From an uncultured Gammaproteobacteria bacterium (GTDB lineage: Bacteria; Patescibacteriota; Microgenomatia; Levybacterales; UBA12049), in the NCBI GenBank assembly GCA_964424775.1, contig CAYRJZ010000006.1:1-57757 (forward strand): 57,757 bases of DNA. The letters are read 5' to 3'. Below are positions 1-17,940 of this stretch, one piece after another. Position 1 is the stretch's first letter. The number at the start of each line of letters is the position of its first letter. Both the position numbers and the translations under genes were made by a program. The notes under the pieces were generated by a model that was given only the letters and a program-made list of their open reading frames with translations, did not search any database and was not told the DNA's origin.

Positions 1-70
1 CCTGGAGGGACTTGAACCCCCGACCCCTTCGTCCGAAGCGAAGTGCTCTAATCCACTGAGCTACAGGTGC
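1..70 (-). tRNA. tRNA-Arg(UCG), 3' end cut by window edge
   Basis: Reverse complement gives GCACCTG acceptor, GCTC/GAGC D-stem, CTTCG-CTTCGGA-CGAAG anticodon arm and GGGGG-TTCAAGT-CCCTC T-arm. Confidence 0.93.
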
Positions 71-2119: not shown

Positions 2120-3331
2120 ATGGATTATCGAGAAATTGTTAAATCAGCGCTCCAAGCACTCAAAAGAAATATTTTGAGAACATCTTTGACAATGCTTGGA
2201 ATTATTATTGGAATTACATCAGTCATTCTTATCGTCTCGATTGGTCGCGGAGCAGTCGCATTTATCACAGGGGAGTTATCAAGTTTTGGCACTGATTATT
2301 TTCAAATCAATCCAGGAAACAGCACTTTTAGTTCAATTACAGGAGTAAATACACTGACACTTGAGGACGTTGAGGCAATTGAAAATGATGATTCCTTAAC
2401 GAATGTCAAGCAAGTTGCCCCTATCGCTATGAGTACCAATGTTGTAGTTGCAAATGATATTGAAGAGTCAACTACTATTACTGGCATTACATCGAAAGTT
2501 CAGGAAATTTTGCGGCCTGATATTATTTATGGAGAATTTCTTACTGAAGATAATGATCGTGGGGCAGAAAGAGTCGCTGTTCTGGGAATAGAAGTAGCTA
2601 AGACTTTGTTTGGCGAAAACACAGATCCAACAGGCGAAACAATTCGCATCAAAGACTCAACTTTTCGAGTCATTGGTGTAACAGAGTCATCCAGTGCACT
2701 TGCCGGATCTGTTCTCAATAACTCAGTGTATGTCCCGATTAATGTTGTATTTAATGAGTTGGTTGGCGAAGAGAGAATACAGGAAATCGATGTTAGTGTT
2801 CATGATGAAAGTCAGATGAATCAAACAATAGAAGATGTAGAGACCTTACTTCGTGACCGGCATAATCTTGATGAAAATGACGAAAACGATTTTCAGATAC
2901 AAAGTGCGCAAGATATTCTGACGACTGTTCAAACAATTACTGGTCTTTTAACAACGATGATTGCAGGTATTTCAGGTATTTCCCTTTTAGTGGGAGGAGT
3001 AGGGGTCATGAACATCATGTTAGTATCAGTTACTGAGAGGACAAAAGAAATTGGACTTCTTAAGGCTATTGGTGCAAAAGAAAAAGATATTCTCACTCAA
3101 TTTCTTATAGAAGCAATTGTCATGTGTGTCGCTGGTGGACTTGTAGGAATAATTCTTGGAATTAGTGGGGCCTTTGTTATTTCACTTGTTGCACATATTC
3201 CATTCGTTATTGATATACCTGCAATAATTATTGCAGTTGGTGTTTCGACACTTGTTGGAATAATTTTTGGATTGTACCCTGCGCGTCGTGCAGCAAGACT
3301 ATCCCCAATTGATGCACTTAGGTATGAGTAA
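2120..3331 (+). CDS. MacB/FtsX-family ABC permease
   Basis: LTMLGIIIG first TM, large extracytoplasmic domain, GGVGVMNIMLVSVTERTKEIGLLKAIGA and YPARRAARLSPIDALRYE motifs. Confidence 0.95.
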   Translation: MDYREIVKSALQALKRNILRTSLTMLGIIIGITSVILIVSIGRGAVAFITGELSSFGTDYFQINPGNSTFSSITGVNTLTLEDVEAIENDDSLTNVKQVAPIAMSTNVVVANDIEESTTITGITSKVQEILRPDIIYGEFLTEDNDRGAERVAVLGIEVAKTLFGENTDPTGETIRIKDSTFRVIGVTESSSALAGSVLNNSVYVPINVVFNELVGEERIQEIDVSVHDESQMNQTIEDVETLLRDRHNLDENDENDFQIQSAQDILTTVQTITGLLTTMIAGISGISLLVGGVGVMNIMLVSVTERTKEIGLLKAIGAKEKDILTQFLIEAIVMCVAGGLVGIILGISGAFVISLVAHIPFVIDIPAIIIAVGVSTLVGIIFGLYPARRAARLSPIDALRYE

Positions 3332-13873: not shown

Positions 13874-14041
13874 AAAAGTATCCTACGAAGAGATTGTAAG
13901 AAACAGATGAGAATATGTAAAGCAAATGATGTACGACTGGAGGGATTTACTACAAGGGTACAATCTTCTCCGAAGTGTCGCTTCTCATCCCGTCCGAGAA
14001 CACAACAAATCTGAAGAAAGAATCTTAAAAATTTGTGTGTG

Positions 14042-14114
14042 TACGCCTGGAGGGATTCGAACCCCCGACCACATCGTTAGAACCGATATGCTCTATCCAC
14101 TGAGCTACAGGCGC
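14042..14114 (-). tRNA. tRNA-Arg(UCU), no encoded CCA
   Basis: TATCG-GTTCTAA-CGATG anticodon arm; canonical D and T arms. Confidence 0.9.
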
Positions 14115-16732: not shown

Positions 16733-17428
16733 ATGTCTATAGATGAGGTTCAAGTTCAAGATGAATATGGAATTCAAGGCGGTGAGTCTATCCACTTCTC
16801 TGAAATAGAGAATTTAAGAACACCTTTGCTTGAAATTCTGAAACAGATCAAACCAGCCATTGATTCACGAAGATACGGGATGTTAGTGAGTGATGACACG
16901 GGTGGACGAATCCCAACGATTATTCTAGGACGAACTATTAACCGGTACTATTTTAAACACGGACAACGAGCAGTCCCAAGTATATTTATCCAAGGATCAA
17001 GAAACATGAAACATCTTCCGGATATGTTAAATGCCTTTCAAAGTAGAAGTCGGGCACTATCTTCTGTTCAGCCGGATCAAAGAGCACTTCTCGTAACTGA
17101 ACACATAGGTCAAGGAATTAATTTAAAACACTTTACAACTATTTTTAATTCACTCAAACTCCCATATGATGTGGCAGCAATTGAAGCTTCTGTTTCTGAA
17201 AGAAAATACCAAATTGAAGAATGTTTGGCACAAGAGTCTCATCTCTTTGCCGGAGATTCAGATTTTAAAGCACACTTTATTGATTTCAAATATACAGGAG
17301 TAAATCCTGAAAAATACACAGGAATAAAATTTATTACCGACCCGGAAGTACGAAAATATGCTCGTGTTGCACTTCAAGATGCACGTTTAGTCAGTAATCA
17401 ACTCCTCGAGGAAATTGAGAGAATATAA
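16733..17428 (+). CDS. Hypothetical protein, possibly degenerate PRTase-like fold
   Basis: LVSDDTGGRIP and ALLVTEHIGQG resemble phosphoribosyltransferase motifs; weak. Confidence 0.5.
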   Translation: MSIDEVQVQDEYGIQGGESIHFSEIENLRTPLLEILKQIKPAIDSRRYGMLVSDDTGGRIPTIILGRTINRYYFKHGQRAVPSIFIQGSRNMKHLPDMLNAFQSRSRALSSVQPDQRALLVTEHIGQGINLKHFTTIFNSLKLPYDVAAIEASVSERKYQIEECLAQESHLFAGDSDFKAHFIDFKYTGVNPEKYTGIKFITDPEVRKYARVALQDARLVSNQLLEEIERI

Positions 17429-17433
17429 AGATG

Positions 17434-17507
17434 TCGGGGACAAAGGACTTGAACCTTCGACCTCACGGTCCCAAACCGCGCGCTCTAGCCAACTGAGCTA
17501 GTCCCCG
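17434..17507 (-). tRNA. tRNA-Pro(UGG), no encoded CCA
   Basis: CGGGGAC acceptor; GCGG-TTTGGGA-CCGT anticodon arm. Confidence 0.95.
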
Positions 17508-17518
17508 AAATATTCTGG

Positions 17519-17604
17519 TGGTGCCGCGGGGGGGACTCGAACCCCCACGTCCTTGCGAACAAGGGCTCTTAAGGCCCCCGTGTATACCATTTCACCACCG
17601 CGGC
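17519..17604 (-). tRNA. tRNA-Leu(UAA) with encoded CCA
   Basis: GGGGC-CTTAAGA-GCCCT anticodon arm, long variable arm, ACCA end. Confidence 0.93.
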
Positions 17605-17843
17605 ATAGTATCGATTTCTTTGATTATTTCTCTTCCAAAACCAGATTTAAAAAAAATTTCCATTTTTCTTGCGTCACTGATAATATCAACTATTTCAACG
17701 TGTACAAGTACAACCGGCAGTTTATTTTTCGTAAAAGTTACTTTTCCTCCATCATGCTGCGCTAACCTTACACCAAGATTAGAAGTTAGTCCTTTATAAT
17801 ACTCACCTGTACGCAAACTTCTGAGTATATAAACAAAATACAT
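17592..17843 (-). CDS. Small stand-alone GIY-YIG nuclease
   Basis: YFVYIL...YYKG, RLAQH and conserved Glu (KMEIFFK); last codons and TGA stop lie within the 5' 13 nt of tRNA-Leu. Confidence 0.85.
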   Translation of the reverse strand: MYFVYILRSLRTGEYYKGLTSNLGVRLAQHDGGKVTFTKNKLPVVLVHVEIVDIISDARKMEIFFKSGFGREIIKEIDTMPRW

Positions 17844-17856
17844 TGTAAAACTTTGC

Positions 17857-17902
17857 GTGTATACCCCTGCCTGCCGGCAGGCAGGATTTCACCACCGCGG
17901 CA
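17857..17902 (-). repeat. Duplicated 5' end of tRNA-Leu (26 bp) interrupted by perfect 20-bp palindrome CCTGCCTGCCGGCAGGCAGG (17866-17885)
   Basis: GTGTATACC + ATTTCACCACCGCGGCA here matches 17580-17605 exactly once the palindrome is removed. Confidence 0.95.
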
Positions 17903-17910
17903 ATGTGCAT

Positions 17911-17940
17911 ATTTTACTTGATTTGCCGTGCTCTAAGCAA
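17911..17940 (-). promoter_or_regulatory. Sigma70-like promoter TTGCTT-18-TAAAAT upstream of the disrupted tRNA-Leu 5' copy
   Basis: -10 at 17911-17916 and -35 at 17935-17940; 9 nt separate the -10 from the first G of the fragment. Confidence 0.55.

Follow-up and report, generated by a model that had tools for sequence, protein, structure and literature searches.

Intron-less genes for GIY-YIG nucleases have been reported in association with structured RNAs in both phages and bacteria. In the tRNA gene cluster of phage T4, the gene for SegB is situated among tRNA genes and is present in some relatives and absent from others; its product, which is longer than 83 residues, cleaves site-specifically, and the free-standing homing genes of the T-even phages are thought to spread by break-induced copying along with their flanking sequence (PMC2330249). 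In bacteria of the Candidate Phyla Radiation (CPR), GIY-YIG open reading frames (ORFs) occur within rRNA genes in insertions that are not introns of group I or group II, and most of these insertions sit at the tops or bases of stem-loops (PMC11270868). Here we describe a 297-nt cassette that occupies the gene for tRNA-Leu(UAA) on the minus strand of contig CAYRJZ010000006.1, analyzed as a stretch of 57,757 nt (hereafter the window). In this cassette a gene for an 83-residue GIY-YIG protein lies between a displaced copy of the tRNA's 5' part, split by a 20-nt palindrome, and the intact tRNA. Full-text searches of a library of papers, in which the palindrome string was included, found no published description of such tRNA-linked GIY-YIG cassettes, the two systems above being the nearest reports.

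With SegB the cassette shares an intron-less GIY-YIG gene among tRNA genes whose presence varies between relatives. SegB, however, is encoded by a phage gene lying between other genes, where no part of a tRNA is duplicated and there is no palindrome. With the rRNA insertions the cassette shares the bacterial group and the residence of GIY-YIG ORFs in structured-RNA genes outside introns of either group; those insertions, in contrast, interrupt the rRNA genes, and tRNA genes, target duplication and a palindrome are not described for them (PMC11270868). A different set of likenesses is offered by the integrase-borne islands and prophages of tRNA and transfer-messenger RNA (tmRNA) genes, which similarly supply a replacement tRNA segment, create a direct repeat and leave a working tRNA; tmRNA genes are targets in both cases. 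Unlike such islands, the cassette has no recombinase, amounts to only ~300 nt in total, commonly duplicates the 5' end of its target and carries a palindrome in the displaced fragment.

The cassette in tRNA-Leu(UAA) and its empty sites

The cassette, the tRNA-Leu and the neighboring tRNA-Pro all lie on the minus strand, and in the direction of that strand the features of the locus are as follows.

17911-17940, minus strand: candidate native tRNA promoter, TTGCTT (17940-17935), an 18-nt spacer and TAAAAT (17916-17911)
17886-17902, minus strand: displaced tRNA-Leu 5' segment, part 1, a 17-nt exact repeat of 17589-17605 (tRNA positions -1 to 16)
17866-17885, minus strand: palindrome CCTGCCTGCCGGCAGGCAGG, perfect, 20 nt, inside the D-loop of the displaced copy
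17856-17865, minus strand: displaced tRNA-Leu 5' segment, part 2, a 10-nt exact repeat of 17579-17588 (tRNA positions 17 to 26)
17844-17855, minus strand: spacer ahead of the start codon, 12 nt
17592-17843, minus strand: GIY-YIG nuclease gene, 83 codons (Pfam PF01541, E 1.5e-9)
17519-17604, minus strand: intact tRNA-Leu(UAA) (ARAGORN and Rfam, 57.9 bits), the first 26 nt of which are the replacement copy
17433-17507, minus strand: tRNA-Pro(UGG), a neighbor outside the insert (ARAGORN and Rfam)

The first-pass annotation of this DNA had proposed an integrase-free element of about 300 bp that rebuilds its tRNA, and in this it was correct: the period of the repeat, and with it the formal insert, is 297 nt, and the tRNA-Leu stays intact because a fresh copy of positions 1-26 is fused to the rest of the gene. 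The 26-bp direct repeat from which that proposal started is real, but it is not uninterrupted. Its upstream copy consists of 17 and 10 nt parted by the palindrome, which splits this copy only, between tRNA positions 16 and 17; the palindrome occurs once in the window, and no chance match is expected there (shuffled sequence). The GIY-YIG gene is, as had been noted, alone: it is the sole ORF of the insert, in which there is no recombinase of either the tyrosine or the serine type. Its last 13 nt, comprising four codons and the TGA stop, overlap positions 1-13 of the tRNA-Leu, and no Shine-Dalgarno-like sequence is visible in the 12-nt spacer ahead of its start codon (17844-17855). Of the neighboring genes, three encode a carboxypeptidase, a phosphatase-family protein and a lipase, and one an unknown protein of 231 residues (to which we return below). 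The genes that flank the insert are also those found in relatives without it. Two more familiar kinds of element were tried and rejected. An integrase island, or the att-site scar of one, does not fit an insert and neighbors that carry no recombinase gene, and a group I intron of tRNA-Leu(UAA) does not fit an uninterrupted tRNA without any intron RNA match. An Rfam search of the window at E up to 1 placed only the two tRNAs above threshold, with two further matches far below the cut-offs.

A promoter had also been claimed ahead of the upstream copy, and here the support is at the level of consensus only. A TAAAAT box, as read from the sequence, lies 8 nt upstream of the displaced tRNA copy and is accompanied by a weak TTGCTT -35 element; a consensus promoter scan did not list this pair, with its weak -35, and returned instead two weak candidates inside the GIY-YIG ORF. 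In most related loci a comparable -10-like box is found ahead of the upstream tRNA copy, and at empty sites one is found ahead of the tRNA itself; the TTGCTT/TAAAAT pair is likely to be the tRNA's native promoter.

Empty alleles, for which the first-pass annotation had proposed to look among close relatives, do exist. Relatives were found by a search with the neighboring D-Ala-D-Ala carboxypeptidase (70-82% protein identity), and three of their lineages were represented by DNA contigs (L081, L082/83 and L084/85, with carboxypeptidase identities of 75%, 70% and 70%). These share with the window the gene order phosphatase-family gene, carboxypeptidase, tRNA-Leu(UAA), tRNA-Pro. In all three the tRNA-Leu follows the carboxypeptidase by ~40-50 nt, and the locus contains neither a GIY-YIG gene nor a tRNA fragment nor the palindrome. 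The stretch of L081 from the tRNA-Leu through the 11-nt spacer to the tRNA-Pro is 100% identical to that of the window. Two further runs gave Logan contigs that would fit an empty site: both tRNAs are matched without a mismatch, and the distance to the carboxypeptidase gene is 308 nt shorter than in the window. In public sequencing runs the window's own locus was matched in its tRNA parts only (share 0.10). Because relatives with the same gene order have an empty site, the cassette is most simply read as an insertion in the window's lineage; several independent losses would be a less simple account.

Recurrence at other tRNA genes

The second expectation of the first-pass annotation, that the design should recur, is borne out at a wide range of tRNAs, both within the CPR bacteria and outside them. 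When one genome per prokaryote species was scanned for the pattern, 454 stretches that encode relatives of the protein came to light, of which 80 were fetched. In approximately 60 of these 80 a co-oriented tRNA starts between -35 and +30 nt from the GIY-YIG stop codon, and the adjoining tRNAs are those for Leu (all five anticodons), Glu, Asn, Lys, Arg, Thr, Gln, Met, Phe, Cys, His and Val. Most of the tRNA-abutting loci have, 46-105 nt before the ATG, an exact repeat of the first 16-25 nt of the same tRNA. The D-loop of this repeat is split by the same 20-nt palindrome or, in other clades, by a longer GC-rich hairpin, after which the tRNA sequence resumes to about position 25-31 or 35-39. The insertion of the palindrome is clean, with no base lost or duplicated, and in 29 of 37 loci the duplication of the tRNA sets in at position 1, give or take 3 nt. 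With up to two mismatches, CCTGCCTGCCGGCAGGCAGG is found 56 times in the 80 loci and the window's stretch, 47 of these copies lying beside a GIY-YIG gene.

The family ranges over CPR bacteria, Bacteroidota and some phage contigs. Bacteroidota with the same design include Flavobacterium (L053, L039), another bin (L054) and the cultured Marixanthotalea marina (L080). A genome can hold several copies, at different tRNAs. Other Microgenomates also have GIY-YIG loci at a tRNA-Leu(UAA)-tRNA-Pro pair (L002, L012, L023), with flanking genes that differ from the window's. A mirror form exists as well: in L052 an intact tRNA is followed 0-3 nt later by the ORF and then by a 3' tRNA fragment with the palindrome in its T-loop, and L031 is similar, with three hairpins in the 3' fragment. 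This form duplicates the 3' part of the tRNA, as islands do. A separate, well-supported GIY-YIG clade is located just 3' of tmRNA or tRNA genes and is associated with small hairpins of a different kind. In L048, L051 and L075 (about 2460-3270) members of this clade lie 100-140 nt 3' of a tmRNA, and the gap is filled by small hairpins, for example CGCGTCAAACGCG and AACGTCTGACGTTT.

Several loci have a more complex structure. In L025 and L045 the 3' end of another, older GIY-YIG ORF stands directly upstream of the displaced copy, as would be expected if a tRNA that was occupied before had received a second insertion, and remnants without an ORF, composed of the fragment and the palindrome, lie upstream of tRNA-Leu genes in L025 and L027. 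Downstream of the GIY-YIG gene of a Flavobacterium locus (L039, 3235-3705) there are four tandem units of ~116 nt, in each of which a 5' fragment of tRNA-Arg is joined to the palindrome and to a stub of 52 nt; an intact tRNA-Arg comes after the units. In some loci (L006, L010, L023, L042) the displaced fragment differs from the adjacent tRNA at acceptor-stem positions and, because of these differences, it may have been imported with the cassette or be a fossil. One of these, L042 (2611-3309), has a single cassette between two different tRNA-Thr(CGU) genes; the second half of its displaced fragment matches the upstream tRNA copy and the first half matches neither.

The nuclease gene is under strong purifying selection, the ratio of nonsynonymous to synonymous divergence (dN/dS) being 0.04-0.18 in pairwise comparisons among relatives. 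Three pairs of loci share their flanking genes, and in these the ORF is 3-8 times less diverged at synonymous sites than the flanks: ORF dS is 0.26 vs 0.82-2.46 for the flanks in L011/L014, 0.20 vs 1.13-1.58 in L008/L016 and 0.16 vs 0.50-1.04 in L039/L054. In L011/L014 the aligned sequences pass from unalignable to 94-98% identity exactly at position 1 of the displaced copy and return to ~85% past the tRNA. In these relatives, as distinct from the window's own copy, the cassette is younger than its flanks. In addition, nuclease clades track tRNA type: on the protein tree, labels of tRNA type and configuration change 25 times, vs 38-39 in the shuffles for which values were listed (five of 200). 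The tRNA-Glu clade is spread over several CPR phyla, and two copies within one genome sit in different parts of the tree (L003 and L078; L017 and L072). Taken together, the dS contrast, the identity jump, the tree labels, the range of the clade and the co-resident copies look like the product of cassette lineages that are each faithful to a single tRNA type and pass horizontally from one genome to another.

The predicted nuclease and its possible route of spread

The 83-residue protein scores 38.5 bits against the GIY-YIG profile PF01541 (curated cut-off 22.6), and no match was found for it in NCBIfam or PHROGs. Its AlphaFold2 model (predicted local distance difference test, pLDDT, 95) has strands at residues 2-9, 15-20 and 44-52 and helices at 23-31, 55-66 and 68-79, which is the beta-beta-beta-alpha-beta-alpha-alpha core of the GIY-YIG fold with its two Tyr motifs and its conserved Arg and Glu. 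Residues Y5, Y16, G18, R26 and E62 are the same in all of 40 sequences, and H30 in nearly all; Y5, Y16, R26, H30 and E62 are the residues of catalytic type. The nearest families by both profile and fold are UPF0213 (YhbQ, EF2693, BH0048) and SLX1, with which the catalytic-type residues are shared: sequence-profile comparison ranks EF2693 (E 6.9e-12) and BH0048 (E 5.1e-11), both UPF0213, ahead of SLX1 (E 4.6e-5), and Foldseek puts BH0048, Slx1 and EF2693 on top with I-TevI sixth. The protein is not an SLX1 orthologue, because all 83 residues belong to the catalytic domain and the C-terminal zinc finger of SLX1, an enzyme that works with SLX4 in repair, is lacking. To our knowledge, UPF0213 proteins have not been linked to tRNA genes or palindromes. 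The model thus describes a bare catalytic domain of the SLX1/UPF0213 type, for which nuclease activity is predicted; this identification and the conserved palindrome of the upstream copy are the two points that go beyond the first-pass annotation. Seg proteins carry a separate DNA-binding region, and no such domain, whether of the Seg or the I-TevI kind, can be accommodated here, where no sequence exists beyond the catalytic domain. Because there is nothing further, a long sequence-specific target is unlikely, and we propose that the enzyme is probably structure-selective rather than sequence-specific.

We consider the locus to be a selfish cassette that has entered the 5' part of tRNA-Leu(UAA) by breaking and copying DNA, a reading to which we assign a probability of roughly 0.55. 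The less specific statement, that we are dealing with an insertion that is horizontally mobile and not with an operon of the host, we hold with considerable confidence. Like a homing gene, the cassette has both occupied and empty alleles and, in relatives, is younger than its flanks; that its spread is driven by the nuclease, as first suggested, we infer from the sequence. The layout is, in order, the likely tRNA promoter, the original positions 1-26 (now dead and bearing the palindrome), the 12-nt spacer, the GIY-YIG gene and the fresh positions 1-26. The nuclease gene, which has no convincing promoter of its own, would be transcribed from the tRNA promoter and read within the leader of the tRNA precursor, from which RNase P would then free the tRNA. 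The nuclease would nick or cut DNA stem-loops, either the arms of the tRNA gene or the palindrome, and an empty tRNA gene broken in this way would be repaired by copying an occupied one, with a left homology arm provided by the displaced 5' fragment and a right one by the intact tRNA. In such a scheme the tRNA type of each lineage would be set by the homology arms and not by the enzyme. Two metatranscriptome contigs of depth 2, from a relative of the Marixanthotalea locus (L080), span the passage from the hairpin to the ORF start and from the ORF end to the tRNA start; they are too thin to count, and DNA carry-over is possible.

A number of points weigh against the break-and-copy reading. Cleavage, a transcript and transfer at the window's own locus are things that we infer, and an isolated 83-residue domain has no counterpart of the DNA-binding module of the proven GIY-YIG homing enzymes. 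There is no obvious immunity to re-cutting, because occupied and empty alleles have the same intact tRNA. The low dS of the ORF could partly reflect constraint on the tRNA leader, and the donor does not appear to have been sampled, since the nearest relative of the window's GIY-YIG protein is only 65% identical. The model leaves unexplained why the palindrome is always in the D-loop of the displaced copy, and also why both repeat copies match the new tRNA type after a jump. Finally, the palindrome leads a life of its own, because ~91% of its sampled exact copies have neither a GIY-YIG gene nor a tRNA nearby.

The solitary palindrome and the alternative readings

Among 127 exact copies of the palindrome in metagenome contigs, 6 are within 200 nt of a GIY-YIG gene, 6 more are near a tRNA (450 nt) and 115 are near neither; in viral contigs, 40 of 42 copies are solitary. 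The 161 distinct flanks of the palindrome have neither a target consensus nor a regular target duplication: in 150 of them the match is 0-1 nt long, and in only 3 does it reach at least 7 nt. An insertion sequence or a miniature inverted-repeat transposable element was rejected, there being no transposase and the insertion being clean and without regular duplication. The type of hairpin follows the nuclease clade. In the tRNA-Glu clade an asymmetric 35-nt hairpin occurs in one orientation in 5 loci and as the reverse complement in 6, which argues for insertion at the DNA level and weakens an RNA-level role for that hairpin. Hairpins are nested in one another in L043 and L029. For the 20-nt form a role at the RNA level is conceivable: in three variants of the 20-mer (found in L001, L012, L039 and L054) positions 5 and 12 change together, from C/G to T/A or A/T, and these positions pair only in a slipped register, where a stem of 6 bp encloses a TGCC loop and leaves CAGG as a 3' tail. 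In two viral contigs (L110, 2239-2330, and L087, near 8616) a sequence resembling tRNA-Met contains the palindrome beyond its anticodon arm and close to its variable region, and in L110 ARAGORN still calls a 92-nt tRNA despite it.

These properties recall the repetitive extragenic palindromic (REP) sequences and REPINs with their RAYT enzymes, and also the very small dispersed repeats of cyanobacteria that Elhai reportedly described in 2008: all are short, GC-rich palindromes with many dispersed copies and with nesting. As in the REP/RAYT system, moreover, a type of palindrome is paired with a single-copy enzyme gene that has a copy adjacent to it. RAYT, unlike the GIY-YIG protein, is an HUH/Y1 enzyme, and REPs are intergenic and not tied to tRNA genes; for the cyanobacterial repeats we know of no enzyme. 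Because the palindrome is mostly solitary, the hairpin type follows the nuclease clade and the hairpin of the tRNA-Glu clade points to DNA-level insertion, a REP/RAYT-like account is a serious rival. It takes the palindrome to be what actually moves, with the GIY-YIG gene supplying the enzyme in trans; the tRNA-linked position of the gene would be a stable, well-expressed home base rather than a homing cassette, and the broken tRNA fragment a tolerated landing pad for the palindrome. The scarcity of exact metagenomic copies near a GIY-YIG gene, the solitary viral copies, the flanks devoid of consensus and regular duplication, the agreement of hairpin with clade, the two orientations of the asymmetric hairpin and the nesting all speak for this account. 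It leaves unexplained, however, the duplication of the tRNA and its boundary at position 1, and the age of the ORF in three pairs, which is below that of the flanking genes, counts against it; because the ORF is present or absent among relatives with the same flanking genes, the gene must move too. We regard this account as unlikely, albeit the strongest of the alternatives to break-and-copy spread. A combination of both ideas, a two-part class of mobile DNA in which a target-regenerating GIY-YIG cassette in tRNA or tmRNA genes is accompanied by a cognate palindrome moved in trans, is one that we advance tentatively, as somewhat less improbable than the palindrome acting alone. The enzyme would then move the 20-nt GC-rich palindrome into hundreds of unrelated sites, phage DNA included, and the targets would be chosen by DNA stem-loop structure and homology arms without a sequence-reading domain.

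Two further explanations appear to us decidedly improbable, and to about the same degree. The first is a Campbell-type integration and excision of a circle of ~280-300 nt that carries the 5' segment of the tRNA: a crossover in the 17-24-nt repeat would insert it and the reverse would restore a perfect tRNA, both through host recombination that is perhaps stimulated by the nuclease. The anatomy is indeed that of a single-crossover product within tRNA positions 1-17, the empty sites are perfect tRNAs, and the tRNA and tmRNA targets and the junctions in anticodon and T loops resemble those of integrase-borne islands; but repeats of 17-24 nt are very short for host recombination, and no strand-transferase is encoded. 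The second is a host function for the nuclease, such as repair or defence where stem-loop DNA is highly transcribed, with co-transcription with the tRNA ensuring its expression and the fragments arising as by-products. Such a role would suit the purifying selection on the ORF, the very large size of the family (4,833 clusters at E 1e-10 or better in a profile search of 1.84 billion representative proteins) and the fact that its UPF0213/YhbQ relatives are ordinary chromosomal proteins. It is at odds with the patchy presence of the gene among close relatives, the several copies per genome at different tRNAs, the tandem re-insertions and decayed ORF-less remnants, and the youth of the cassette relative to its flanks. 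A chance duplication or a misassembly at the repeat, a concern raised at the outset and suggested by the shortness of the repeat (17 + 10 nt) and the metagenomic origin of the contig, can be dismissed because the same three-part architecture recurs in dozens of independent assemblies from different projects, the ORF is conserved and the palindrome is not matched by chance in shuffled sequence.

The surroundings of the cassette show some further variation. The 231-residue ORF (window 16733-17428, plus strand) has no Pfam match even at E 10 and ends 5 nt from the 3' end of the tRNA-Pro. L081 and L084 lack it at this place and have the lipase gene immediately next, and in L082/83 a gene for a 588-residue ABC transporter stands in its stead; because it is absent or replaced in these relatives, the 3' side of the tRNA-Pro may be regarded as a second variable spot. 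Elsewhere in the window, a tRNA-Arg(UCU) gene (14041-14114, minus strand) has a 16-nt copy of its 3' end, with one mismatch, ~95 nt downstream (13931-13946), perhaps the scar of an old integration or what decay has left of a 3'-side cassette; neither an ORF nor a palindrome lies between the gene and this copy. Positions 1-70 (minus strand) contain a tRNA-like sequence, apparently a tRNA-Arg, that is cut by the start of the contig.

There is a practical consequence for the annotation of tRNA loci. Gene callers often extend these GIY-YIG ORFs upstream through the palindrome, and this read-through gives rise to spurious N-terminal extensions of 20-45 residues that contain the string 'LPAGRQ' (as in P0002 and many proteins from the profile search). 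Of wider significance is the manner in which the cassette coexists with its target. Genes for tRNAs are essential and highly conserved, and the cassette enters one of them without an intron, an integrase or a loss of function by providing a spare copy of the part that it displaces, a route to harmless insertion that differs from those of both self-splicing introns and integrative islands. If the enzyme is truly selective for stem-loop DNA, it would be a small and tractable tool for the study of DNA hairpins. If the two-part class proves real, it would constitute an unrecognised kind of bacterial mobile DNA, whose palindrome would be among the smallest mobile elements known, and it would offer an explanation for the GC-rich palindromes that are dispersed through these genomes.

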